Below are positions 31,124-55,928 of a stretch of DNA of 64,000 nt, piece by piece. The notes below the pieces were generated by a model, which ran no database searches, was not told the DNA's origin, and saw only the letters and a list, made by a program, of their open reading frames with translations. Both the position numbers and the translations under genes were made by a program. Origin of the DNA: Candidatus Aenigmatarchaeota archaeon. GTDB taxonomy: Archaea; Aenigmatarchaeota; Aenigmatarchaeia; QMZP01. Every line of letters begins with the position of its first letter. Position 1 is the first letter of the stretch. The stretch covers positions 73,635 to 137,634 of the forward strand of contig JACPNN010000004.1 of assembly GCA_016185435.1 (NCBI GenBank), read 5' to 3'.

Positions 31124-32599
31124 TCACGCCTCATCCTGAACAAATTTCTTCCCTTCCTTCAGCACCATTTCAGCCCTCGCAAGCTCGTGGCCTATGTATG
31201 CGGCATGGTCGAGCATGGAGATGAGATTTTCATTGATTATTCTCCTGTAAAGAACTTGGGCCTTGTTTCCCCTGAAGACATAGCCTGTCGGCAGGCCTTC
31301 CCTTGTATAATGCTCGACTATTATCTCCCCATTTTCGACCTTAACGATGAAATAGCCGTTCTCGTCCTCTGAGAAGGCCGCTGGTTTGTCCGCATGGTAT
31401 TTGTCTATTATGGCCTTGGCCTCCTTCCAGTTGTTCTCATAGATGTGGGCAGATGTGGATACTGTTATCAGCTTCCCTGCCTCCATCTCCAGCTCTTTGG
31501 CCATCTGCCTCTGCAGCCTCCTCAGGGCGAAGGCATTGAGGGGCCATGCCCCGAACATGTCATTGGACCTTATTATTGCCGTCTCATAGAGCTTGTTGCC
31601 TTTGATGCTCCACACTATCTGGGTTATGCACGGGGGGTCTTTTGACAGGCTGTCTGCCTCGACATTCCATGTGACTGCAACAGCCCGCCTCGTGTGGGGA
31701 ACTTCTTTCAGGCGCTTCAGGGCATTCTCCACCTGATTCACAATGCCGGAGGGCGTGGCATATTTCAGCAGCCTGTTGCCGTATGTGTACTCCACACCCT
31801 CAGGCTTCTCCTCTGAAAAGAATGTAGCGAAGTAGCTTTCGAGGTCCTTTTCCGTTATGTTCAGCCAAGGCGCTATTTTCTCATCATCGCCTTCTATTAC
31901 AGTGACGAGATTTATGACCTCATTCTGCCTTGCCTGGTACTCAGTCTGCTTCTCCTCCCCGAATTTCATCACCACATCAAGGGCCTTCAGCCATACATCG
32001 GCAATGCTCCTGCCCCTCACTTTAAAAGCTACTTCCCCTGATTTCATCTCCGCAGGCCTTGTCTCGAGCTCTGTTATGAAGACAGCCTCCATGAATGGCT
32101 GCTCATTCTTCAATTTCTCGACAGCATTTGGAAGCTCCTCTTCCTTCCCTCTCAAATCAATCACCTTCACATGGCTGCGGAAACTTTCGATAAGGCAGGG
32201 ATCCACATTCGAATCGATATAGCCTGACGAGCCGATTATTTTCCTGTCTGAATCACAGCCGCTGCTGACGAAATTCATCAGGGCCTGGCCGCTCTTCATG
32301 AGATCTGCGCCGCAGAGGGCTATGTATCTTATGGTGGGCTTCGCAAGGATGTTCTTGAGCATGGGGTTTATCCCCTGGACCGTGTAAAGGTTGCCGCAGA
32401 CTGCGTATTTGTTCTCAGGCACCTTACTGTGGATTATTTCCTTCCTTGTCCAGAGGGTGCATATCCCCACTGAGCTGTCAGGATTGCCCAGCTTCAGCTC
32501 GTCCCTGTAGAATATCGGCCATTCCATGTCATCAGGCCAGATTTGGATGCAGGCCATAAAAATGTTGGGGATTGAAAAAGGGAACGACCCCATTCTCAA
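31124..32599 (-). CDS. thyA: Thymidylate synthase (ThyA-like core) with large N- and C-terminal extensions
   Basis: Core motif PHTRRAVAVTWNVEADSL...PCITQIVWSI parallels the ThyA RR..W..PC active-site region. About 250 extra N-terminal aa and a C-terminal tail (DUF4346-like). Confidence 0.65.
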   Translation of the reverse strand: MRMGSFPFSIPNIFMACIQIWPDDMEWPIFYRDELKLGNPDSSVGICTLWTRKEIIHSKVPENKYAVCGNLYTVQGINPMLKNILAKPTIRYIALCGADLMKSGQALMNFVSSGCDSDRKIIGSSGYIDSNVDPCLIESFRSHVKVIDLRGKEEELPNAVEKLKNEQPFMEAVFITELETRPAEMKSGEVAFKVRGRSIADVWLKALDVVMKFGEEKQTEYQARQNEVINLVTVIEGDDEKIAPWLNITEKDLESYFATFFSEEKPEGVEYTYGNRLLKYATPSGIVNQVENALKRLKEVPHTRRAVAVTWNVEADSLSKDPPCITQIVWSIKGNKLYETAIIRSNDMFGAWPLNAFALRRLQRQMAKELEMEAGKLITVSTSAHIYENNWKEAKAIIDKYHADKPAAFSEDENGYFIVKVENGEIIVEHYTREGLPTGYVFRGNKAQVLYRRIINENLISMLDHAAYIGHELARAEMVLKEGKKFVQDEA

Positions 32600-33835: not shown

Positions 33836-35212
33836 ATGATTAGGTTTATAGACAGGGGAGATGAAATAGGGCTTCTCGAAGAAGAATGGAAGAAGGAGAA
33901 AGCAAGATTTATAGTGGTCTATGGAAGAAGGAGAATAGGCAAGACAAGGCTTTTGATGGAATTTGCGGCTGATAAGAAAGGCGTCTATTTCATTGGAGAA
34001 GATACAAGCAGGCAGATACATATCAGGGATTTAAAAAATGCACTTGCAGATTTCTTCAATGACAGCTTCTTGAGAAATACAGAAATTAGAGACTGGAGCA
34101 ACTTTTTTGAATATCTTAAGAAAATAATCCCTGAAAAAGAGAGGTTTTACATAATAGTGGATGAATTTTCCTATTTTATAAAGGCTGATGCTTCAATAAC
34201 AAGCTCCCTGCAAAAGTTCTGGGATCTTTTCCTTTCCCGCACCAATGTGTTTTTTGTGGTTTCAGGCTCCATATTCGGCCTTATGGAAGAAAGCGTTTTG
34301 TCCTCTTCCTCGCCTCTTTATGGCAGAAGAACAAGGGATATCTTGCTTGGCCAGCTGCCGGCAAGGCATGCGGCAATGTTTCTCGCATCAGATATTGAAG
34401 AAAAGCTCAAAACAATCATGTGTATTGGAGGTATACCTGAATACCTCATCAAGGCTTCTGAATCTGATAATTTCAAAAGCTTCATAGAAAATGAATTTTT
34501 CAGAAAAAGCGGATATTTCTACAGGGAGCCATATTATCTGCTTTCCCAAGAATTCAAGGAGATAAAGACGTATTTTTCCATCATAAATGCCATCGCCTTT
34601 GGGAACACAAAAGCAACAGAGATAGCAAACTTTGTCGGAATTGATTCAAGGGAGATATACCCCTATCTTGAGAATCTCATAAGGCACGGATTTATAAAAA
34701 AGGAAATTTCTGTTCTTGGCGACAGAAAGGGCGGAATTTATTTAATTGAAGACAACTTTTTCGATTTCTGGTTCAATTTTGTCTATCCGAACAGGAACAG
34801 CATAGAGAGAAAGAGCTATTCTGCCAGCGAGCATGATTTGAACCGTTATCTAGGAAAGAGGTTTGAGATGCTAATCAGAAATGATATATTTCAAGAAATT
34901 TTTGGCCCAAAATTTGAAAAACTCGGCAGATGGTGGCACAAGGACAAAGAGATAGACATTGTAGCTTTAAGCGAGCAAACTAAGGAAATACTCTTTGCAG
35001 AATGCAAGTGGCAGGAAAAGGTTAATGCTGAAAAAATTGCAAAAGAGCTTGCTGAAAAATCAAGGTTTGTAGACTGGAATTTGAATGAAAGGAAGGAAAC
35101 TTTTGCGGTATTTGCCAAAAGTTTCAGGAAGAAAATCTATGAATTTGGAGGGAAAAAAGTTTATTGCTTTGACCTCAAGGATTTGGGGAGGGTGATGGAA
35201 AACGGCAAGTAA
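33836..35212 (+). CDS. Archaeal AAA ATPase (Arch_ATPase / DUF234 family)
   Basis: Walker A VYGRRRIGKTRLL and Walker B IIVDEFSY. 458 aa. The gene is distinctly AT-rich compared with its neighbours. Confidence 0.8.
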   Translation: MIRFIDRGDEIGLLEEEWKKEKARFIVVYGRRRIGKTRLLMEFAADKKGVYFIGEDTSRQIHIRDLKNALADFFNDSFLRNTEIRDWSNFFEYLKKIIPEKERFYIIVDEFSYFIKADASITSSLQKFWDLFLSRTNVFFVVSGSIFGLMEESVLSSSSPLYGRRTRDILLGQLPARHAAMFLASDIEEKLKTIMCIGGIPEYLIKASESDNFKSFIENEFFRKSGYFYREPYYLLSQEFKEIKTYFSIINAIAFGNTKATEIANFVGIDSREIYPYLENLIRHGFIKKEISVLGDRKGGIYLIEDNFFDFWFNFVYPNRNSIERKSYSASEHDLNRYLGKRFEMLIRNDIFQEIFGPKFEKLGRWWHKDKEIDIVALSEQTKEILFAECKWQEKVNAEKIAKELAEKSRFVDWNLNERKETFAVFAKSFRKKIYEFGGKKVYCFDLKDLGRVMENGK

Positions 35213-46185: not shown

Positions 46186-46579
46186 TTACAAGATGAAACC
46201 CCTTTCCTTCAAAACTGCCTTCGCCTCTTCTGCAAAATTCTTCAGGCCTGCTATCTGTTTTTCTAAAGTCTCATTATCCAAGGCGATTTCTGTTTTCCTT
46301 CCATAATCTGCCTGCAGCCTCATCCCGTATGAAGATTCCAAAAGTTCCCTGTAGTTGTGACTGAGTGCCCCGGACTCAAAAAGCTTCTGGATGCTGTTCC
46401 AGATTTTTCCATGATTTCTGGAGGAAGCTCCATGGAAAGCCATAAGAAGGAGAGTAAGCCAAGTTTTCTCCTGCAATATACAAACGGCTTGCGGCCATAG
46501 GGAGGCTTATAGATAATGCAGCCTCAGCGTCCTTTATCGCCTGAATCCCTCTGATATATGACTCCTCTGCTTCATTCAT
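46186..46579 (-). pseudogene. HEPN-domain gene interrupted by a frameshift
   Basis: Two overlapping ORFs in different frames (46376..46579 with a HEPN-type N-terminus MNEAEESYIRGIQAIKDAEAAL, and 46186..46476 with the HEPN C-terminal half). Together they make one HEPN protein of about 130 aa. Confidence 0.5.
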
Positions 46580-47649
46580 TTCCAGTCCTCCAGCCTCTTT
46601 GAGGCCTCTCTGTATTTCTCCTCAAAAAGATTCAGTACTTTTTCAACTTCAGATTTGCTGACATCCAATGCGCTCTCATCCCACCACTTTCGTGTCAGCC
46701 TATAAGCAGAAGAAAGTTTTGCTTCTCCTATCTGTTTCAGTTGGGAAGGTATATCGTGTTTGGAACCTGGTATTATATTATTTAAAAGAAGCACCGCTCT
46801 GCACAGATGGATGGCTATTGTGCTCAGGAAGGATGGTGAGGAGTCCGGAAATTTTTTGTACATTTCCCTTGCCTCCTTCAGCCTCTCATCTGCAAATTTG
46901 AGCCTCATTCGAATTGATTTCTTTGTGACTAGGGGTATTCCTTTCAACAGATGGTGGGCAAAGAAGCTGTCCTTATCGAAAATCACTATCCCATCCTGCA
47001 TAATGTTTATCAGGAAATCATCGCCTATATCGTAATTATCCATGAATTGTTTTTTTGTTTGCAGAAAAACCTGGGATACCTCGGAAAATATATCTGAGAT
47101 CTCATGGCCAACTTCTTTCAGCTCATCTGCTGCCTGCTTTTGAACTGCAGTTTCCACGATAACCATGATATCTATATCGCTCCATTTTGCTGCCCTGCCT
47201 TTGGAAACAGAGCCAAAAACTACTACAGACACAAGGTTGTCTCCGAGTATTTCCTTATACGAGTCTTTAAGCCTGCTTATTGATGTCCTGAACCTTCCAG
47301 GAATATCAAAAAGCCTGTCCGTATGGGACAGCGCTATAAGGCTGAAGACAAAAGGATTGTTTTTGTTCAGCCTGTAGACAACCCTGTTCCCGTCATTTCT
47401 TCTTGTCAGGATCCTGTTCCTTTCGAACTCTTGCAGAAGCTCGCTTGTTCTGCCCAGCCCTACAGCAAGCTCTTTCGAAAGCTTATTGAGATAGTACTCT
47501 TCATAGGGCTTTCTTGCCATGGCCAAAAGTATCCTGAACCCGACCCTTGAAAACATCTTTTCTATCATAATTCTGTTTGGGGCAGGGGTATTTATAAACT
47601 TTCTGAAAATAGAAAGAAGTTTCTGATTTATAGCTATCGATACAAACAT
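46576..47649 (-). CDS. wHTH + nucleotidyltransferase (Pol-beta superfamily) domain protein, probable partner of the HEPN gene
   Basis: NTase motif VVVFGSVSKGRAAKWSDIDIMVIV in the middle. N-terminal wHTH-like region. Stop/start overlap with the HEPN gene. Confidence 0.7.
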   Translation of the reverse strand: MFVSIAINQKLLSIFRKFINTPAPNRIMIEKMFSRVGFRILLAMARKPYEEYYLNKLSKELAVGLGRTSELLQEFERNRILTRRNDGNRVVYRLNKNNPFVFSLIALSHTDRLFDIPGRFRTSISRLKDSYKEILGDNLVSVVVFGSVSKGRAAKWSDIDIMVIVETAVQKQAADELKEVGHEISDIFSEVSQVFLQTKKQFMDNYDIGDDFLINIMQDGIVIFDKDSFFAHHLLKGIPLVTKKSIRMRLKFADERLKEAREMYKKFPDSSPSFLSTIAIHLCRAVLLLNNIIPGSKHDIPSQLKQIGEAKLSSAYRLTRKWWDESALDVSKSEVEKVLNLFEEKYREASKRLEDWK

Positions 47650-47833: not shown

Positions 47834-48505
47834 TCATCTGATCCTGAAGTCGGAAATAATGCTGGTCTTATAGGAGCTGGGTATTGAGGAAAGTATGCTT
47901 TTTGTGCTGGTCACTTTGTCATCATATGTTATGTTCCATGTGCTGCCATACGATTCCACTTTTGTCACCCCTTCAAGACCTGAAAGCCTGGCCTTTGTCG
48001 CATAATAGCAGTTGGCGCACCATATGCCATCTATCCTGATGCTTGCCATCCTCAGGTCTGTCTTGCCTTCGATGTAAACAATTCTGGTTCCGCTTTCCTG
48101 AAAGGCCAGGGGGGCTGCCAAAGGGACGATGACAAATACTAGAATAACATACACAGCCGCATATGTGATCAGAACAAACGCTATGAGATTCCTGTATTGC
48201 TTGATTCCATGCATTGTGCACGCCTTCCTGTTCTGAAGGAAAACATAAAGGGCTGCGATCATGTAAGCGATCGAAAAGGCAATGAAGTGCCACCTGTATT
48301 CGGCAAAGGCGAGGACGAAGGAAGAGCTTGCAAGCCCAAGAAAAACGAGCGCCAGGGGGATTGTGCAGCAGAAGCTTGCAAAAAAGCCTGAAAGAAACCC
48401 GATTATTGAAGCGCTTTTATTGTCACTGGCTGTTCCTGGATCAGAGTTTTTGTAAAACCTGGACTTCCTGGCGTATTTGTTTGGGAAGGGCGTGTTGCTT
48501 TTCAT
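47834..48505 (-). CDS. MerT-like membrane protein fused to a C-terminal HMA (MerP-like) metal-binding domain
   Basis: Vicinal Cys pair in TM1 (FASFCCTIPLALVFLG) as in MerT. C-terminal GIWCANCYYAT CxxC heavy-metal-associated motif. Confidence 0.45.
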   Translation of the reverse strand: MKSNTPFPNKYARKSRFYKNSDPGTASDNKSASIIGFLSGFFASFCCTIPLALVFLGLASSSFVLAFAEYRWHFIAFSIAYMIAALYVFLQNRKACTMHGIKQYRNLIAFVLITYAAVYVILVFVIVPLAAPLAFQESGTRIVYIEGKTDLRMASIRIDGIWCANCYYATKARLSGLEGVTKVESYGSTWNITYDDKVTSTKSILSSIPSSYKTSIISDFRIR

Positions 48506-48642: not shown

Positions 48643-49266
48643 ATGGAACAAAAGATGGCAATCGTATTGGCAGTTGGGATAGTGCTGGGGCTTGCTGCTG
48701 GAACACTTATTTCTTCGTTCCAGGTAAACAGCCTCAATGCCAAGCTCACAGAGGTCTCAGGCAGGGCAACGGCTGCTGAAAGCCTCAAGGGCCAGATTTC
48801 AGACCTCAAGCTGCAATTGGAGAAGCTGAATGTGAATGAGCTCTACGGCCTTGTGAAAGCCGGAGACAAAGCCAAAGCCTATGGGATCGGCGACCTCAAC
48901 AAGATGCCTCCAATAATTGCTAATGACTATGTTGGCCAGACGCCTGTGGTGGTGTCATGGTGCCCCCTTTGCAACACCCTGACCGCATATGAAAGGGCTC
49001 TTCCAGGAGACATTATCGCCAATGGCAAGACCATATCCAAAGGCACAGTCCTGACTTTCAGGGAGGCAGGGGCGAGGAAGATACCAGGCACTGACATAGA
49101 CAACCTGCATTTCAAGGATGATGAGACAGGCAGCTTATGGGCTCAGGGCCCTGGAATGGCTGTGGAAGGGCCGGCCAAAGGGCAAGAGCTAAGGACGCTT
49201 CCAATCCAGCTGTTCAACAAGGGCGTAATAGCAAAAATGGGTGCGCCTGTCTGGGGTTCCAGCTAA
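48643..49266 (+). CDS. Membrane-anchored DUF3179-like protein
   Basis: N-terminal TM helix. VVVSWCPLCNTLTAYERAL motif is paralogous to the C-terminal domain of the 50003 gene product. Confidence 0.5.
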   Translation: MEQKMAIVLAVGIVLGLAAGTLISSFQVNSLNAKLTEVSGRATAAESLKGQISDLKLQLEKLNVNELYGLVKAGDKAKAYGIGDLNKMPPIIANDYVGQTPVVVSWCPLCNTLTAYERALPGDIIANGKTISKGTVLTFREAGARKIPGTDIDNLHFKDDETGSLWAQGPGMAVEGPAKGQELRTLPIQLFNKGVIAKMGAPVWGSS

Positions 49267-49286
49267 ACCAATTGGGGGGGGGATAT

Positions 49287-50006
49287 ATGCCAGAGCTCAC
49301 AGTCTTTGTTGCATTTGTAGCTGGCCTCTTTTCTTTTGTTTCGCCATGCATACTGCCTCTCATACCTGCATTCCTGTCTTACCTTTCAGGCGTCAGCCTG
49401 TCGGAAGCTGGGAAGAGCTCAAAGTCAAGGATATTTGTCTTCATGAATGCTGCTTTCTTTGTGCTTGGGTTTTCCCTTGTCTTCTCCATATTGGGCGTCC
49501 TGCTTTCAAGCATCCTCAGCGATGCAGCATACGACTTAAGGCTGTGGCTGGGAAGGATAGGCGGAGTGATAATAATAGCCTTTGGCCTTTACCTCATGAA
49601 GCTGATAAGGCTAACCTTCCTTGAGAAGGAGCACAAGATGAAGGTCAGGAGGTTCGGCAGCAGCTATGCCACTTCCTTCGCTTTCGGCGTCGCGTTTGCT
49701 GCAGGCTGGACGCCATGCGTTGGAGCAATACTTGGAAGCATACTTGCCCTTGCCGCAGTGCAGCCGCAGAATGCCTTCTCCCTGCTGCTTGCTTACTCTG
49801 CAGGCTTGGGAATACCCTTCCTGCTTTCCGGACTCTTCATCTCAAGGATGCAGCCATTAATAAAAAAGCATTCCAGTGCCATTGACAAGGCCAATATGGT
49901 GTTCGGGGCTGTGCTTGTGATTCTTGGCATACTCGTCTTTACCAACATGCTCGCATCAATAGCAAGCATACCTTTCCTTAACCAGTTCTTGCAGGGGGGA
50001 ATATGA
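49287..50006 (+). CDS. ccdA: CcdA/DsbD-type transmembrane thiol-disulfide electron transporter
   Basis: Start at ATG 49287 (MPELTVFVAFVAGLFSFVSPCILPLIPAFLSYLSG). Two conserved Cys sit in TM helices (..SPC.. and ..TPC..). The longer ORF from 49137 was rejected. Confidence 0.75.
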   Translation: MPELTVFVAFVAGLFSFVSPCILPLIPAFLSYLSGVSLSEAGKSSKSRIFVFMNAAFFVLGFSLVFSILGVLLSSILSDAAYDLRLWLGRIGGVIIIAFGLYLMKLIRLTFLEKEHKMKVRRFGSSYATSFAFGVAFAAGWTPCVGAILGSILALAAVQPQNAFSLLLAYSAGLGIPFLLSGLFISRMQPLIKKHSSAIDKANMVFGAVLVILGILVFTNMLASIASIPFLNQFLQGGI

Positions 50007-51526
50007 CAGGCTCAAGCAGGATGGCTTTGGGTATAGCAGTGGTCCTGATTGCAGGAGCCATAGCTTTCATAGAGCTGCAGAAACCGCAGGCAAAAATGCA
50101 GGAGGATGAAAATGTCGGCCTTTCAATAGGCAAGACGGCTCCTGATTTCCAGCTTGAAACGATTGACGGGAAAAAGGTGCATCTAAAGGACTTCAGGGGC
50201 AGGGCTGTCATTCTGAATTTCTGGGCATCATGGTGCCCTCCATGCAGGGTTGAGATGCCGGAATTCCAGCAGGCCTTCGACAAGAACAAGGACAAATTGG
50301 TGGTTGTGGGGGTAAACCTCCAGGAGGCAAGGGAAAATGCTCAGGCCTTTGTCGACAAAAACAGGATAACCTTTCCTATACTCCTTGACCCCAAGGCAGA
50401 GGTGAAGGACCTTTATGGGGTCTTTACCCAGCCTGTCACATATTTCATCGACAAGGAGGGAAAGATTGTGGACAAGAAGTTCGGGCAGCTGACTGGTGAA
50501 GAGATTGATGAGAAAATTGGAAGGCTTATTGGAGAGGGCTTGTCTAAAGCGAATGCCGGAAATGAGGAAATCAAAACCCTTCCGGACGGAACAAAATACA
50601 TCATCCATCCTGACAAGTTCCTTTCTGGCGGGCCTCCAAAGGACGGCATTCCATCAATTGACAATCCTAAATTTGTTTCAGTCAAGGAGTCAGAAGAATG
50701 GATGGAAGGCAATGATCTGGTTCTTGGGATAGTGCACAAGGGAGTGGCAAGAGCATACCCTTTCAAAATACTGGTCTACCATGAGATAGTCAATGATGAA
50801 ATTGCCGGAGACCCGATATTAATAACTTATTGCCCGTTATGCCAGACAGGGCTTGCGTTTGAAAGAAGGGTGAATGGCCAGGCTGTTGAATTCGGAGTTT
50901 CAGGAAAGCTTTACAACAGCGAGCTTCTGATGTATGACCGCTTGACTGAATCTTATTGGCCACAGAGCCTGGGGAAAGCCGTATATGGCAAGCTTACTGG
51001 GACAAGTCTCAAAAAATTGCCGATAGATGTTGCCAGATGGAAAGGCTGGAAGGAAAAGAATGCTGAAGGGCAAGTCCTTTCAAGGGACACAGGATTTCTC
51101 AGGGATTATGGAAGGGACCCTTATGGAGGCTATTACGATTCAAGAAGCGTGTGGTTCCCTCTGGAAAATGAGGACAAACAAAACAGGCTGCATCCCAAGG
51201 AAAGGGTGATAGGCATTGAAGCAAACGGCAAATACAAGGCTTACACGCTTGAAAGCATAAGGAAGGGGAAGGTGATAAATGATGCTGTCGGGGGAAAAAG
51301 TATCGCGATTTTCTATGACCCTGATCTTGATTTTGCGAGAGCCTTTGAAAGCGACGGGAGAAGCTTCAGGCCTGAAAATGGCAAAATACTTGATGACAAA
51401 GGCAATGAGTTTGCGGCAGACGGGAAATCAGGCAGCATGCAGCTTGAAAGGCTTATAGCTGAAAATGCGTTCTGGTTCGCATGGTATGCTTTCCATCCGG
51501 ATACGGATCTTTATAAGTTGAGTTAA
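50003..51526 (+). CDS. TlpA/ResA-like thioredoxin-fold thiol-disulfide oxidoreductase fused to a DUF3179-like domain
   Basis: N-terminal TM anchor, WASWCPPC thioredoxin active site, and C-terminal ITYCPLCQTGLAFERRV. Its ATG overlaps the stop of ccdA. Confidence 0.75.
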   Translation: MTGSSRMALGIAVVLIAGAIAFIELQKPQAKMQEDENVGLSIGKTAPDFQLETIDGKKVHLKDFRGRAVILNFWASWCPPCRVEMPEFQQAFDKNKDKLVVVGVNLQEARENAQAFVDKNRITFPILLDPKAEVKDLYGVFTQPVTYFIDKEGKIVDKKFGQLTGEEIDEKIGRLIGEGLSKANAGNEEIKTLPDGTKYIIHPDKFLSGGPPKDGIPSIDNPKFVSVKESEEWMEGNDLVLGIVHKGVARAYPFKILVYHEIVNDEIAGDPILITYCPLCQTGLAFERRVNGQAVEFGVSGKLYNSELLMYDRLTESYWPQSLGKAVYGKLTGTSLKKLPIDVARWKGWKEKNAEGQVLSRDTGFLRDYGRDPYGGYYDSRSVWFPLENEDKQNRLHPKERVIGIEANGKYKAYTLESIRKGKVINDAVGGKSIAIFYDPDLDFARAFESDGRSFRPENGKILDDKGNEFAADGKSGSMQLERLIAENAFWFAWYAFHPDTDLYKLS

Positions 51527-51569: not shown

Positions 51570-54098
51570 TTACTTTAGAAGATTAAGCAATTTATCTTCT
51601 ATAGAAAATGTCCATTTCTGGAATGATGATGCTCCGACATATTGATTGAACGCAAAGAGTGCTCCTGAAAGGATTAGGTAGCCTAAAACAATAAATAGTG
51701 CTCCAGATATGAGAGATGTCGAATGCACTCTGATTGTCTTTTTTCCGATACTGAAATGTAGTTCCTTGCCTTCGATCATTTTCCAATATCTCCCATTTTT
51801 ATCTATTTTGCTGAGATACGTCGAAAGGAGCAGTAATGGGAGGGCAAGGCCCAAAGCGTATAGGAATAAGAGCAAGCCTCCAGTAAGCGCTGAACCAGAT
51901 GTCGATGCCAAAAGAAGGACAGCAACTAGGATAGGCCCGATGCAGGGTGTCCACGATAAGCCGACAACACTCCCAAAAACAAATGCGCCGGCATACGTTG
52001 TTGGTTTGCTCTGCTTTATTTTTAGGCCAGTGAATCCTTTGCCAAATAAGATATACAATCCAAAGAGGATTACTATAATGCCCGTTACTTGAGAAAAGAC
52101 TGTTAGATTAGATTTCAAAAAATTTCCAATAAATGTTGCTGTCATGCCAAGGAGGGAGAACACAATAGCTAAGCCTAAAAAGAATGCTATGGCCATTCCC
52201 TTCACGTTCTTTTTTGATGATTCAAAAGTGTATGCAATATACGCTGGAAGAATTGGAAGTGTACATGGAGAAATAAATGAGAGAAGACCAGCAAAAAAAG
52301 CGACTAATAACAAGAGTAAAATTGGCCCTTCAAGCTTATTCAAGCCTTCATTGGTGGGAACAAATGCTACTGATTTGTTTGGTTCTTGGCTCTTAATAAG
52401 ACTATTAACCCAAAAGTTCTTCAATGCTTCTTGTTCAACTTGGTTAATCTCTGCTTTTTTGGAGTTGTATTCTGATATGAGGCCATGCTTGGATGCAAAT
52501 TGTGCGGCTTTTGCAATATAATATCCGCTGTCCAAACCACCAGCTTCACCAGTCTTACTACCCAATGTTTTGATACCGGCATCCAAATATTTAATATCTC
52601 CAGTCTGCTGATAGAGTTTCAGTAATGAATATGCAATAATCCCATTTTCTTCTGCTGGTTTAGAAAGGTCAATGTTTTCCCCAGGAGCATAAAGTTGTGT
52701 GTCGAGGCTGTTTCTCTCAAAGAATCCTCCACTGTTCCAATCATATAGGTTATTCAAGCTATATTCAGCTAATTTCTTAGCAGTAGCAAGATGCTCTTCA
52801 TCTCCTAAAACTTCATACCCTTCAGTAAATGCAAGTATCAAGTATGCATTATCTAACAAACTCCCGCGCACTTCTTTGCTTCCATCTTCTTTGTAATAGT
52901 GATACGCTCCATTTTCACTAACCATGTTCTGCAAGAAAAAATCAAGAGATTTTTTTGCCATTCCTTTATATTCTTGGTTACCTGTTCTTTGCCACAAAAA
53001 AAGATAGGCAAGTATCGCCTCTGTGTTCCAATCGGAGTATTTTGTCTTTTCCACCCTCGGCTTATCAGATGGTCGCGGGTTCTTTCCGTAATACGCATTT
53101 TCTCCGTGTACATCTGTATTGGCGTAGAATCCGCCAATTTTTCCATCGTACCAGTGTAATTTTATATAGTCATTTGTTTTTTCTACAACTTCATTTACCA
53201 TCGTATCGTTAGGTGTTATCTCTTTGAGATGTGCATAAGCCTTCAATAATTTGGCATTATCATATAGCATCTTCTCATAATGAGGTGGCGTCCATTCTCT
53301 TGTTGTGCCATAGCGATGAAAACCACCCTCAATGGGGTCAAAAAGATGGTAATTAGCTCCTACATCTTGGATTTTGGTGTACTGATTTTTTAGCGTGTTT
53401 TGTACCAATGTTAAGAATTGCTTGTTTCCTGTTGATTCATAAATCTCTAATGAAAAATCTAAAGTCCTTCCTTGGGGAAACTTCTGTCCGGTTCCAAAAC
53501 CGCCATAAATAGGGTCGTAAGTTTGTAAAGTATAAGAAGCGTAACCATTGATAATATTTTGCAGCTGGCTTTCTGTTGGGATAACTGGCCCCTCTTTTTT
53601 GTACTCGTAAGAAAATTCATTTGCGAATCCGCTGCTCTCAACATATTTGACGGCTTGCCTGAGGTTGGCTACCATGTTTTGCACTTGTCTTGGGCCGGAA
53701 TATCCAAAAAGTCTTTTGCCATTTGGGGACATTATAGTTGTTGAAGGCCAGCCGCCTTCCAAATATTTTCTTGTTAAATCCTGACGTTGGTCAGCGTCAA
53801 CGTAGATGGGTATAAAATTTTCATTGATATACGGATAAATGTCCGGATGAAATAGATAGTCTTCACTTTCGTAAACTTGACACCAATAACACCATGATGG
53901 AGCTGTTAATAAGAGAAATATAGGCTTATTTTGTTTTATTGCTTCATTGAAGGCGTTAGGGCCATAATCTCTCCAATTGATAAGCGGTTTTAACTTTTCA
54001 GAGTGTTCAAAAGAATAGTGAGATGTAGCCAAAACCGGTGATGGAAAAAGTGATGATAGGATTACAAGAGATAGGAGTAGATGTTTTCTTTTTCTCAT
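51570..54098 (-). CDS. Fusion protein: secreted YyaL/DUF255-like thioredoxin plus (alpha/alpha)6-type domain plus C-terminal CcdA-type membrane domain
   Basis: Signal peptide, SWCYWCQV thioredoxin-like motif, a long alpha-helical repeat region, then a polytopic C-terminus with FISPCTLPILPAYIAY and SWTPCIGPIL (the CcdA Cys pair). Confidence 0.7.
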   Translation of the reverse strand: MRKRKHLLLSLVILSSLFPSPVLATSHYSFEHSEKLKPLINWRDYGPNAFNEAIKQNKPIFLLLTAPSWCYWCQVYESEDYLFHPDIYPYINENFIPIYVDADQRQDLTRKYLEGGWPSTTIMSPNGKRLFGYSGPRQVQNMVANLRQAVKYVESSGFANEFSYEYKKEGPVIPTESQLQNIINGYASYTLQTYDPIYGGFGTGQKFPQGRTLDFSLEIYESTGNKQFLTLVQNTLKNQYTKIQDVGANYHLFDPIEGGFHRYGTTREWTPPHYEKMLYDNAKLLKAYAHLKEITPNDTMVNEVVEKTNDYIKLHWYDGKIGGFYANTDVHGENAYYGKNPRPSDKPRVEKTKYSDWNTEAILAYLFLWQRTGNQEYKGMAKKSLDFFLQNMVSENGAYHYYKEDGSKEVRGSLLDNAYLILAFTEGYEVLGDEEHLATAKKLAEYSLNNLYDWNSGGFFERNSLDTQLYAPGENIDLSKPAEENGIIAYSLLKLYQQTGDIKYLDAGIKTLGSKTGEAGGLDSGYYIAKAAQFASKHGLISEYNSKKAEINQVEQEALKNFWVNSLIKSQEPNKSVAFVPTNEGLNKLEGPILLLLLVAFFAGLLSFISPCTLPILPAYIAYTFESSKKNVKGMAIAFFLGLAIVFSLLGMTATFIGNFLKSNLTVFSQVTGIIVILFGLYILFGKGFTGLKIKQSKPTTYAGAFVFGSVVGLSWTPCIGPILVAVLLLASTSGSALTGGLLLFLYALGLALPLLLLSTYLSKIDKNGRYWKMIEGKELHFSIGKKTIRVHSTSLISGALFIVLGYLILSGALFAFNQYVGASSFQKWTFSIEDKLLNLLK

Positions 54099-54105
54099 AT
54101 GAAAT

Positions 54106-54124
54106 AAGGGGCTCTGCCCCTTAT
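54106..54124. repeat. GC-rich perfect hairpin AAGGGGCTCTGCCCCTTAT; inverted copy of the element at 54693..54712
   Basis: GGGGC-TCT-GCCCC palindrome. The reverse-complement copy TAGGGGCAGAGCCCCTTA lies 587 bp away. Together they bracket the small membrane-protein gene. Confidence 0.5.
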
Positions 54125-54288
54125 AATCCCCGTCGGTTATGGCAGGCTTCCTCTGCGGGTCCTCTTGGTGATGAGCTTGCCCGGACCACGCAGTATCCGC
54201 CAGCCCCCTGTGAATTCTAAGTGGCTTTTCTTCGCTTTCACACAGGACGAGACGATTTTTTGTTCTCGGCCCGCGAAAAAAAAAGAAA

Positions 54289-54669
54289 TTACCCCTTCAG
54301 CGCCATCTTCAGCCTGTCAGGCATCATTGCCAGCGCCTTGAGTATGCCCATCAGGATTATGAATATGCCTGACAATATGAAGCCTATTCCGCCGAGCTTC
54401 AGGGTCATCAGCATAGGCGGGAAGACGAAGAAAATCGTTCTTGCCTCCACCAGTGCCGGGTTGTCGCTGCTTGTCGCAAGCTCCCAGACGTTTTTGGGCA
54501 CCTGACCTATTTCTGTAAGCGCAGGCTTCAGCGTCGTGAACTCAAGGTAGATAGCTGAAAGCACCATCATCAGGCCTATTGCTGCAAGCATCATTCCAAC
54601 CTTCGCCATCATCATGACCTTTGCCTTGGCTTTCTCAGGATCCATTGCCATCTCTTTCATGGTTTTCAC
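54289..54669 (-). CDS. Small polytopic membrane protein, hypothetical
   Basis: 126 aa, three predicted TM helices, Met/Lys-rich N-terminus. Confidence 0.4.
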   Translation of the reverse strand: MKTMKEMAMDPEKAKAKVMMMAKVGMMLAAIGLMMVLSAIYLEFTTLKPALTEIGQVPKNVWELATSSDNPALVEARTIFFVFPPMLMTLKLGGIGFILSGIFIILMGILKALAMMPDRLKMALKG

Positions 54670-55191: not shown

Positions 55192-55413
55192 TTATCCATT
55201 AATTTCAACTCCAGCGCCTTCTTTGCTGTATGCGTATAGTTTGCCGTTTTCCTCATTCTGCACCTTTGCATGGCTGCCATCGCAGAACGGCTTTTTCTTC
55301 GACAGGCCGCACATGCATATCCATCTGCTCTCTTTGCCAACCTGTATCTCCACGGGAGCCTTTTCCTCATGTATGACAATTCTTGCCATGTTTTCAGCCT
55401 CCTTTAAGGCCAA
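55192..55413 (-). CDS. CDGSH iron-sulfur domain protein (mitoNEET-like)
   Basis: C-x-C-x(8)-C-x(3)-H: ICMCGLSKKKPFCDGSH. Confidence 0.7.
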   Translation of the reverse strand: MALKEAENMARIVIHEEKAPVEIQVGKESRWICMCGLSKKKPFCDGSHAKVQNEENGKLYAYSKEGAGVEING

Positions 55414-55633
55414 GGGCCTTTTCTATAGCAGACTTGTCGAAGCCGACGATAATTTTCCCGCCTATATCGATGACAGGAACCCCCATCTGGCGGCTTTTTG
55501 CCATCATCTCAGCCGCAGCTATTGGATTATGCTCCACGTTCAGCTCTTTGTACTCTATGCCCTTCCCTTTAAAAAAATTCTTCGCCATTTTGCAGTAAGG
55601 GCATAATGTTGTTGTATAGATTTTCACTTCCAT
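55394..55633 (-). CDS. grx: Glutaredoxin (copy 1)
   Basis: MEVKIYTTTLCPYCKMAKNFF... CPYC active site. Start set at ATG 55633; the ORF-track start at 55642 is a GTG. Confidence 0.8.
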   Translation of the reverse strand: MEVKIYTTTLCPYCKMAKNFFKGKGIEYKELNVEHNPIAAAEMMAKSRQMGVPVIDIGGKIIVGFDKSAIEKALGLKGG

Positions 55634-55928
55634 GATACTCACCAGTTATGATTGAACGCAGGCTGATATTAATCTGATGTTTATGCATCAAAACTCGTGT
55701 TTAACTACACTTTCTTGTAGACTGATATAATAATCCTGACAATGACAGGAACTAAATATTTTCGCTTGTAATCAGCATGCTGCAAGATAGGCACTACATT
55801 GAGGTAAAGCTATCGTTTTTTGCTTTGATTTTGGGTAGAAACCAATCAGAAGGTATATTTAACTTACTTGTAAATCCAGTATCGGGATAAAATTGCACAA
55901 CCCCTCCCAGCTTTAGGTGGTATGCAAG

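Follow-up and report, generated by a model that had tools for sequence, protein, structure and literature searches.

Does the long open reading frame (ORF) on the minus strand of a Candidatus Aenigmatarchaeota contig really encode one protein that joins a YyaL-type module to a CcdA-type membrane domain and, if so, what would such a protein do? The contig is JACPNN010000004.1 (assembly GCA_016185435.1), the window that we analyzed is the whole stretch of 64,000 nucleotides from position 73,635 to position 137,634, and the gene lies at positions 51570-54098 of this window. The original prediction held that it is a single-polypeptide fusion of a YyaL/DUF255-like thioredoxin, an (alpha/alpha)6 module, and CcdA. 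The Pfam, profile, and Foldseek matches bear this out, and the features of the sequence indicate that the protein is probably a self-contained transmembrane thiol reductase.

The ORF is uninterrupted from ATG to TAA over 2529 nt and encodes a signal peptide, a PF03190 thioredoxin domain with a CYWC motif, an (alpha/alpha)6 barrel resembling N-acylglucosamine 2-epimerases (AGE), a tether of about 30 residues, and a six-helix CcdA domain, in this order. Its features are the following.

51570..54098, minus strand: the whole fusion gene, an intact ORF of 842 residues plus a TAA stop
54024..54098, minus strand: signal peptide or N-terminal signal anchor, residues 1-25, with an RKRK n-region, an h-region, and VLA before T
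53634..54020, minus strand: PF03190 (DUF255/DsbH-type) thioredoxin-fold domain, residues 27-155, from Pfam and PDB sequence matches
53880..53891, minus strand: redox motif C70-Y-W-C73, both cysteines invariant in 85 sequences
53739..53759, minus strand: EGGWPST loop with W117-P118, EGGWPST being present in 81 of 85 sequences
52419..53573, minus strand: (alpha/alpha)6 barrel of the YyaL/AGE type, residues 176-560, from AlphaFold2 and Foldseek, without cysteine
52329..52418, minus strand: tether, residues 561-590, poorly conserved, with a predicted local distance difference test (pLDDT) score of about 52
51573..52328, minus strand: CcdA domain with six transmembrane (TM) helices, residues 591-842, from PF02683 and the match to 5VKV
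52263..52265, minus strand: C612, active-site cysteine of TM1 (SPC), invariant, aligned with the TM1 cysteine of 5VKV
51942..51944, minus strand: C719, active-site cysteine of TM4 (WTPC), invariant, aligned with the TM4 cysteine of 5VKV

All the motifs that had been read from the sequence (a signal peptide, SWCYWCQV, FISPCTLPI, and SWTPCIGPI) are found in the translation. The thioredoxin domain is matched by PF03190 (Thioredox_DsbH, formerly DUF255) over residues 26-152, with 65.9 bits for a cut-off of 27 (E = 5.6e-18), and the family profile matches the PDB sequences 7TKV (1e-25), 3IRA (7e-15), and DsbH 2JU5 (5e-4). Its redox motif is CYWC in 81 of the 85 homologues, whereas ordinary YyaL proteins have CHWC. 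From what is known of thioredoxin folds, we take W117-P118 in EGGWPST to be the cis-Pro loop. The AlphaFold2 model, built from the 85 homologues, has a mean pLDDT of 82.9 and a predicted template modelling score of 0.69; pLDDT is mostly 85-98 in the soluble part (residues 30-570) and about 85-97 in the thioredoxin domain. The first-ranked Foldseek match is 7TKV (E = 2e-22, about 590 columns), a YyaL-type protein of full length, and next come the epimerases and isomerases of the AGE superfamily (E about 1e-11, 11-18% identity), so that what had been described as about 450 residues of helical repeats is a YyaL/AGE-type barrel. The likeness to AGE enzymes is one of fold: sequence alignments to them span a fragment of the barrel without the catalytic histidines, and the Pfam matches to the six-hairpin clan at residues 307-449 (GH88, C5-epimerase, and N-acetylglucosamine 2-epimerase) are weak. 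Invariant in the barrel are GGF..QKFP, GGFHRY, PHYEKMLYDN, W357-N358, H400, D416, and D453..GF.R462. The tether is much less conserved than the domains (mean majority fraction of 0.44 versus 0.68-0.77). Finally, PF02683 (DsbD_TM) matches residues 595-773 with 74.4 bits for a cut-off of 27.1 (E = 1.1e-20), and the alignment with Thermus thermophilus CcdA (5VKV, E = 4e-33) covers all six helices with both cysteines in register. A cytoplasmic insert rich in Lys and Arg, modelled as a beta-hairpin, separates TM5 from TM6. Cysteine occurs at exactly four positions of the protein (C70, C73, C612, and C719). All four are invariant whether 23 or 85 sequences are aligned, and 56 of the 85 homologues have no others.

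The signal peptide (MRKRKHLLLSLVILSSLFPSPVLA, followed by T) has an h-region with a hydropathy peak of 1.95. A hydrophobic N-terminal h-region is present in 82 of the 85 homologues, and the three exceptions look N-terminally truncated. In the CcdA domain, the loops between the six hydrophobic segments hold four Lys and Arg residues (loop 3-4), none (loop 4-5), and eight (loop 5-6). Because the N-terminus is positively charged and followed by an h-region, and because loops 3-4 and 5-6 are rich in Lys and Arg, the predicted orientation of CcdA is N-out/C-out, as expected for its 3+3 inverted repeat, and an N-out CcdA places the thioredoxin domain and the barrel outside the membrane. Hence, the signal peptide and the positive-inside rule agree with the DsbD-like arrangement proposed originally, with a YyaL-type module in the periplasmic position ahead of an N-out six-TM CcdA. 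Since the protein has no other extracytoplasmic cysteine pair, the CxxC of the thioredoxin domain is the only possible acceptor for the cysteines of CcdA.

A missed stop or a frameshift would split the ORF into separate YyaL and CcdA genes, and the gene is not split. The two other frames across the domain junction hold 4 and 8 stops, the 2529 nt are identical in four independent Logan metagenome assemblies, and more than 100 full-length homologues with 50-75% identity have the same architecture. The agreement of the four assemblies and the commonness of the architecture show that the fusion is not a frameshift artefact. The homologues come from several archaeal groups, as a search for the same fusion in other archaea revealed, and more distant fused copies are present in further archaea and in bacteria of the Candidate Phyla Radiation (CPR). 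The named full-length homologues are from Woesearchaeota, Pacearchaeota, Nanoarchaeota, Undinarchaeales, and Nitrosotalea; the contig of the latter carries a gene for a TACK-specific domain, which is consistent with its assignment. Some homologues are labelled by the Joint Genome Institute (JGI) as "YyaL (SSP411 family)/cytochrome c biogenesis protein CcdA". When 1.84 billion representative sequences were searched exhaustively, the full-length fusions amounted to about a dozen clusters at 50% identity, down to about 36% identity.

The scan of genome contigs, dominated by ordinary YyaL genes matching EKMLYDN, gave the CPR fusions, and no locus from DPANN archaea was among the matches listed in it. 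An intact fused ORF of 831 residues is present in a metagenome-assembled genome (MAG) of Peregrinibacteria. In an Absconditabacterales MAG (CALDTY010000002.1, locus L002, 3748-6369), a fusion of 874 residues is open under genetic code 25 only, with 50 in-frame UGA (Gly) codons, some of them at the invariant glycines of EGGWP. It has the same four cysteines, with CYRC as its thioredoxin motif. Because it is fully recoded to code 25, this gene is native to its genome and maintained there. The exhaustive search also matched two eukaryotic records. One is a fused protein of 948 residues with 44% identity, from a EukProt transcriptome (P0250, GILJ01013130), and the other a fused protein of 1114 residues with 41% identity and long low-complexity inserts, from the alga Vitrella brassicaformis (P0261, CEM35642.1). 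Both carry a signal peptide, CYWC, PHYEKML(Y/V)DN, and the TPC motif of CcdA, and the TM1 motif of Vitrella is degenerate (STC). The eukaryotic proteins are possibly plastid or secretory.

The same scan revealed a split version of the system in a Hydrogenedentota MAG (JAYGCN010000011.1, locus L073, 7806-11819), where a gene for an exported YyaL protein of 754 residues lies 4 nt upstream of a dsbD of canonical organization (DsbD_N, DsbD_TM, and Trx_7). A further protein, P0280, is YyaL-like and exported, with a C-terminal membrane anchor and without CcdA. Elsewhere, stand-alone CcdAs are 41-51% identical to the fused CcdA domain.

The composition of the gene bears on its origin. Its GC content is 0.387, and at third codon positions (GC3) it is 0.345, for 0.553 ± 0.061 in the 41 other ORFs of the window (z = -3.4). 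This is the lowest GC3 of the window, a compositional outlier, and the value is uniform over both halves of the gene, which suggests that the gene was acquired laterally and already fused. Low GC is also observed in the ORF 33836-35212 (0.382). In its present location, the gene is preceded by a TATA-like element, which suggests that it has its own archaeal promoter and a leaderless or short-leader mRNA.

54121..54127, minus strand: TATA-like element of archaeal type, ATTATAA, about 25 nt before the ATG, read from the sequence

The intergenic stretch 54099-54288 between the fusion gene and the upstream gene for a membrane protein of 126 residues has 190 nt and is GC-rich. No RNA family was matched in a Rfam scan of the window, including this stretch, and no tRNA genes were found in the window.

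We infer the path and direction of electron flow from analogy with characterized relatives. By homology to CcdA, a cytoplasmic thioredoxin- or glutaredoxin-like protein would reduce the C612/C719 pair; the CcdA domain would then turn outward-facing and hand two electrons to C70/C73 by thiol-disulfide exchange, a transfer to which the lack of any other cysteine in the protein points. The flexible tether of about 30 residues would keep the thioredoxin domain near CcdA outside the membrane. Once reduced, this domain would in turn reduce a putative oxidised extracytoplasmic substrate that is bound or positioned by the cysteine-free barrel. The thioredoxin domain would thus act as DsbD-gamma, ResA, or TlpA do, and the barrel would take the place of DsbD-alpha as the specificity module. 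The precedents are as follows. CcdA, a protein of six helices whose redox cysteines are on TM1 and TM4, transfers reducing equivalents outward (PMC7329351, citing Zhou & Bushweller 2018). Throughout the classes of the DsbD superfamily, the target that the membrane cysteines reduce is a thioredoxin-like protein or domain (PMC3322552). DsbH is described, in a passage of PMC5193440 citing Mac et al. 2008, as a reducing periplasmic oxidoreductase that resembles thioredoxin and DsbD-gamma. It is because of these three precedents, together with the sole extramembrane CxxC, that we read the protein as a reductase. Three other observations count in favor of this reading: the Hydrogenedentota split version, with an exported YyaL gene next to dsbD; the persistence of the fusion through deep divergence, in the code-25 Absconditabacterales, the Peregrinibacteria, and the eukaryotic records; and the envelope thiol-redox genes at 5 of the 10 homologue loci described below.

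Four observations weigh against a reductase of this kind. First, several Deltaproteobacteria MAGs (HBO84565.1, HHL39980.1, and others; P0266, P0267, P0270, P0274, and P0276) encode a variant of 570-640 residues that has a signal peptide, a partial barrel corresponding approximately to residues 390-560 of our protein, and a CcdA domain 38-44% identical to it, and that has no extramembrane CxxC. A model in which the thioredoxin domain is the acceptor does not account for this variant. Its existence implies that the link between barrel and CcdA can persist without a fused thioredoxin, and it hints that the barrel itself may interact functionally with CcdA. Second, among the matches listed, only one of the eight exported unfused YyaL genes has a neighbour of the DsbD family. 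Third, gene context is inconsistent, with no redox neighbour at 4 of the 10 homologue loci described below. Fourth, the low pLDDT of the tether (about 52) and of the TM domain (55-85) makes the relative placement of soluble and membrane domains in the AlphaFold2 model unreliable.

The fusion gene lies beside a second conduit, and the neighbourhood contains the following elements.

46186-47649, minus strand: nucleotidyltransferase-domain protein (357 residues), then small HEPN-like ORFs, by sequence reading only
47834-48505, minus strand: MerTP-like heavy-metal transporter with a C-terminal CANC motif of the heavy-metal-associated (HMA) type, beside the redox island
48643-49266, plus strand: short DUF3179 gene (CPLC), the first of a three-gene plus-strand unit
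49287..50006, plus strand: stand-alone CcdA, 239 residues with two cysteines (PF02683, E = 2.8e-13), with the same gene call in locus L081
50003..51526, plus strand: ResA/TlpA-like thioredoxin (WCPPC; NCBIfam ResA, E = 2.4e-40) fused to DUF3179 (CPLC; PF11376, E = 3e-104)
55394..55642, minus strand: glutaredoxin-like redoxin (CPYC), 82 residues (PF00462, E = 4e-18), 1.3 kb upstream of the fusion gene
31124-32599, minus strand: thymidylate synthase carrying fused DUF4346/MtrA-like domains, with a 100% identical protein in an Aenigmarchaeota MAG

The second CcdA had been described as standing alone next to a TlpA-type partner, and this is what we find: its stop is overlapped by the start of the ResA/TlpA-type gene in an ATGA, so that the two are translationally coupled. 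A point that had gone unremarked is that this partner is itself fused to an effector-like DUF3179 domain. The short DUF3179 gene, CcdA, and the thioredoxin-DUF3179 gene form a plus-strand unit convergent with the fusion gene, and the view that two conduits in different architectural states sit side by side therefore holds, on convergent strands. The pairwise alignment of the two CcdA domains, which had been suggested as a check, gives 31% identity (E = 3e-27), less than the 41-51% of the stand-alone CcdAs found elsewhere; at this level they are not recent duplicates but separate conduits. PMC9312934 counts DUF3179 among the selenoprotein families (UxxC/T), and for this reason its CPLC is probably redox-active. 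By analogy, the region 48643-51526 would be a second chain from conduit to thioredoxin to effector domain. The presence of two independent conduits for reductant in a 5-kb segment of a reduced genome suggests that thiol chemistry outside the cytoplasm is important for these cells.

Upstream of the fusion gene, on the same strand, the redoxin gene overlaps a gene for a CDGSH iron-sulfur protein of 73 residues (the pair spans 55192-55642, 1.1-1.5 kb upstream), and both products are candidate cytoplasmic electron donors. The genes at 46186-47649 look like a toxin-antitoxin-like pair beside the island; an NTP_transf_2 gene of similar kind is found near homologue P0002 (locus L087). The membrane protein of 126 residues (54289-54669) was considered as a conserved partner and rejected, as it is unrelated to an ORF of 123 residues near the Woesearchaeota homologue (E = 2.2). 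As for the thymidylate synthase, its architecture is widespread in DPANN, and its NCBIfam label is that of the methanogen type (thy_syn_methano). Together with the MtrA-like domain, this label would point to a methanogen or ANME host, with the DPANN-like best matches of the fusion due to transfer across phyla, but the complete identity to the Aenigmarchaeota MAG protein refutes this reading and makes the host itself a DPANN archaeon.

Gene contexts were compared at ten homologue loci, a sample that is small and may be non-independent. Envelope thiol-redox genes (DsbA-like or MauE/DoxX) are present in five of them. More precisely, DsbA-like genes (PF13462/PF01323) lie directly upstream in three (P0062, P0070 with two copies, and P0097), these three also have a cupredoxin or multicopper-oxidase gene next to the homologue, and MauE/DoxX genes are nearby in four. 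Glutaredoxin genes occur near P0062 and P0070, the Woesearchaeota homologue has an ArsR-type regulator and MerC, and one context has a ferredoxin and a cysteine-desulfurase-like gene. Considering the copper genes, the MerC/ArsR pair, and the MerTP-like gene of our window, there may be a link to copper or mercury.

These contexts are the basis of the main rival explanation, in which the protein is a relay hub: the tethered thioredoxin, like that of DsbD-gamma or ScsB, would pass electrons on to separate DsbA- or ScsC-like envelope oxidoreductases, these partners would repair envelope proteins that bind copper or are exposed to it, or bring about their maturation, and the barrel would be a docking platform, not a substrate pocket. 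The DsbA-like genes with their copper neighbours, the MauE/DoxX genes, the MerTP-like gene in our window, and the ArsR and MerC genes at the Woesearchaeota locus all fit such a hub. So does the precedent of the Scs system (ScsB to ScsC), which links copper with a conduit of the DsbD type and a partner of the DsbA fold (PMC3322552, and the title of PMC10907172), and the variant with a partial barrel and no thioredoxin suits a docking role of the barrel. However, such neighbours are missing in this window and, overall, in about half of the contexts, and the three copper-linked contexts may stem from related genomes. In addition, the barrel has about 40 invariant polar or aromatic residues, with motifs like those of a YyaL active site, which exceeds what a docking surface usually needs. 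On these grounds we regard the relay hub as unlikely, although it is the most serious of the alternatives.

An improbable explanation is that the barrel is the enzyme, a carbohydrate-active or isomerase-type domain acting on surface glycans, and that the thioredoxin domain and CcdA regulate it or keep it reduced. The folds nearest to the protein after 7TKV are indeed cellobiose, glucose, and N-acetylglucosamine 2-epimerases, mannose and sulfoquinovose isomerases, and GH76/GH88 enzymes, the weak Pfam matches are to the same clan, and the Nitrosotalea context is rich in glycosyltransferases. Yet sequence identity to these enzymes is only 11-18%, and the barrel has no cysteine to regulate. The strict conservation of the four cysteines and the dedicated membrane conduit argue instead for a stoichiometric consumption of electrons.

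Cytochrome c maturation, with the fused thioredoxin as an analogue of ResA or CcmG acting on apocytochrome CxxCH, is the best-known role of CcdA, and several sources call the homologues 'cytochrome c biogenesis protein CcdA'; moreover, one unfused exported YyaL gene (locus L055) has a CcsA-like gene 26 nt upstream of it. Against this, no CxxCH motif occurs in the window ORFs of at least 100 residues, no CcsA, CcsB, or Ccm genes were found in the ten homologue contexts, and the other CcdA of the window already has a ResA-like thioredoxin as its partner. In general, c-type cytochromes are also scarce in the genomes of DPANN and CPR. These observations leave little probability to this role.

Very little credit is due to a reverse flow, in which the module would be a DsbA-like oxidase and the membrane domain would pass electrons inward. 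No obvious DsbB/VKOR genes are present in DPANN archaea at these loci, and the dipeptide of CYWC is unlike that of the reducing CGPC, but the characterized members of the DsbD superfamily all export reductant (PMC3322552, PMC7329351), DsbH of the same thioredoxin family is reducing, and DsbA-like and MauE/DoxX genes are present separately for oxidation. Finally, an assembly or annotation artefact, in which a sequencing error joined two genes, can be considered refuted, given the identical nucleotides in four assemblies, the full-length homologues and divergent clusters, and the low GC3 common to both halves of the gene, and nothing was found in its favor.

We thus retain the transmembrane thiol reductase as the most probable reading. 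The existence of the fusion is not new to databases, since it is already auto-annotated by pipelines, but our literature searches found no paper that describes or classifies a YyaL-CcdA fusion. The published classes of the DsbD superfamily are three, DsbD, CcdA, and ScsB (PMC3322552), and the architecture described here would be a further variant beside them. It would widen the range of targets that can be reduced outside the membrane, with a YyaL-type thioredoxin and barrel as the specificity module.

The wider implication concerns a family that ranges from bacteria to humans. The fusion of a YyaL-type module to a source of electrons is a clue, from the genome, that proteins of the YyaL/SPATA20 type consume electrons and act as turnover reductases. 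A bolder proposal, which we advance tentatively and consider somewhat doubtful, is that the fusion represents an undescribed fourth architectural class of the DsbD superfamily and a 'Rosetta stone' for YyaL/SPATA20. The CxxC of the family would be the catalytic, electron-consuming reductase centre for a substrate bound in the barrel. In ultra-small episymbionts (DPANN and CPR), ammonia-oxidising archaea, and some alveolate algae, this activity would now reside at the cell surface, coupled directly to a membrane conduit for electrons, and lateral transfer would then have carried the whole gene from one domain of life to another. The YyaL/SSP411/SPATA20 family has been called 'entirely unstudied in bacteria' (PMC6822775). 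The same study reports a strong negative phyletic coupling between PF03190 (DUF255) and PF02696 (YdiU/SelO), which its authors interpret as alternative solutions to one function, and this coupling is a lead on the function of the family. With four cysteines in one polypeptide, the fusion is also a tractable system for substrate trapping, and the family of such fusions occurs mainly in DPANN archaea and in CPR bacteria, about whose surface biology and interactions with hosts little is understood.

How does the protein compare with the systems already known? No NCBIfam model spans the whole of it. The best NCBIfam match of its membrane part is TsoB (NF045694, E = 1e-25), a rhodanese/DsbD fusion-like selenoprotein that also combines DsbD_TM with a non-canonical redox module. 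The protein is not a TsoB, as the membrane part scores 89.9 bits for a threshold of 805 and it has neither rhodanese nor selenocysteine. DsbH of Chlamydia (2JU5) has a thioredoxin domain of the same Pfam family, is extracytoplasmic and reducing, and occurs in a host with a ScsB conduit. Unlike the fusion, it is a stand-alone thioredoxin of about 150 residues without barrel or membrane domain, and the match is weak (E = 5e-4; 26.6 NCBIfam bits for a threshold of 190).

Within the DsbD superfamily, DsbD of Escherichia coli (alpha-beta-gamma) shares with the fusion the presence of conduit and extracytoplasmic redox domains in one chain, with an exported domain before TM1. However, DsbD has eight TM helices, an Ig-like alpha domain (PF11412), a C-terminal thioredoxin gamma domain, and six redox cysteines, whereas the fusion has six TM helices, no match to PF11412, a C-terminal tail of 25 residues without a gamma domain, and four cysteines. 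In line with this, it falls outside NCBIfam DsbD (PRK00293), with 55 bits for a cut-off of 330. In ScsB (Cho et al. 2012, PMC3322552), the third class of the superfamily, the N-terminal periplasmic domain of a DsbD-type conduit is likewise swapped for an unrelated module, and Scs loci resemble some of the homologue contexts (DsbA-fold protein and copper proteins). Yet ScsB has eight TM helices and a gamma domain, and its alpha domain (COG4233) is unrelated to the PF03190 domain and barrel of the fusion, which with six TM helices and no gamma domain is not a ScsB. CcdA (5VKV, and CcdA-ResA of Bacillus) has the same six TM helices with SPC (TM1) and TPC (TM4) cysteines, and in both systems reducing equivalents are presumably exported to an acceptor of thioredoxin fold. 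The fusion belongs with CcdA by its PF02683 score, its six TM helices, and its TM1 and TM4 PC-motif cysteines, but it does not stand alone. CcdA is a protein of about 230 residues with a separate acceptor, whereas the fusion adds an N-terminal acceptor and a barrel of 385 residues (about 590 exported N-terminal residues in all) and has the Lys/Arg-rich insert between TM5 and TM6.

The soluble half finds its counterpart in YyaL/SSP411/SPATA20 (7TKV, the uncharacterised Brucella protein Bab1_2064). Both have a PF03190 thioredoxin domain with CxxC and an (alpha/alpha)6 barrel with the motifs GGF..KFP, GGFxRY, and PH(F/Y)EKMLYDN. A typical YyaL protein has about 650-700 residues with CHWC, has no membrane domain, and is about 20-33% identical to the fusion. 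Among the matches listed, about 70 of the 78 unfused loci encode YyaL proteins without a signal peptide. The fusion thus has the domains and motifs of this soluble, non-exported family, but in an exported and membrane-tethered form.

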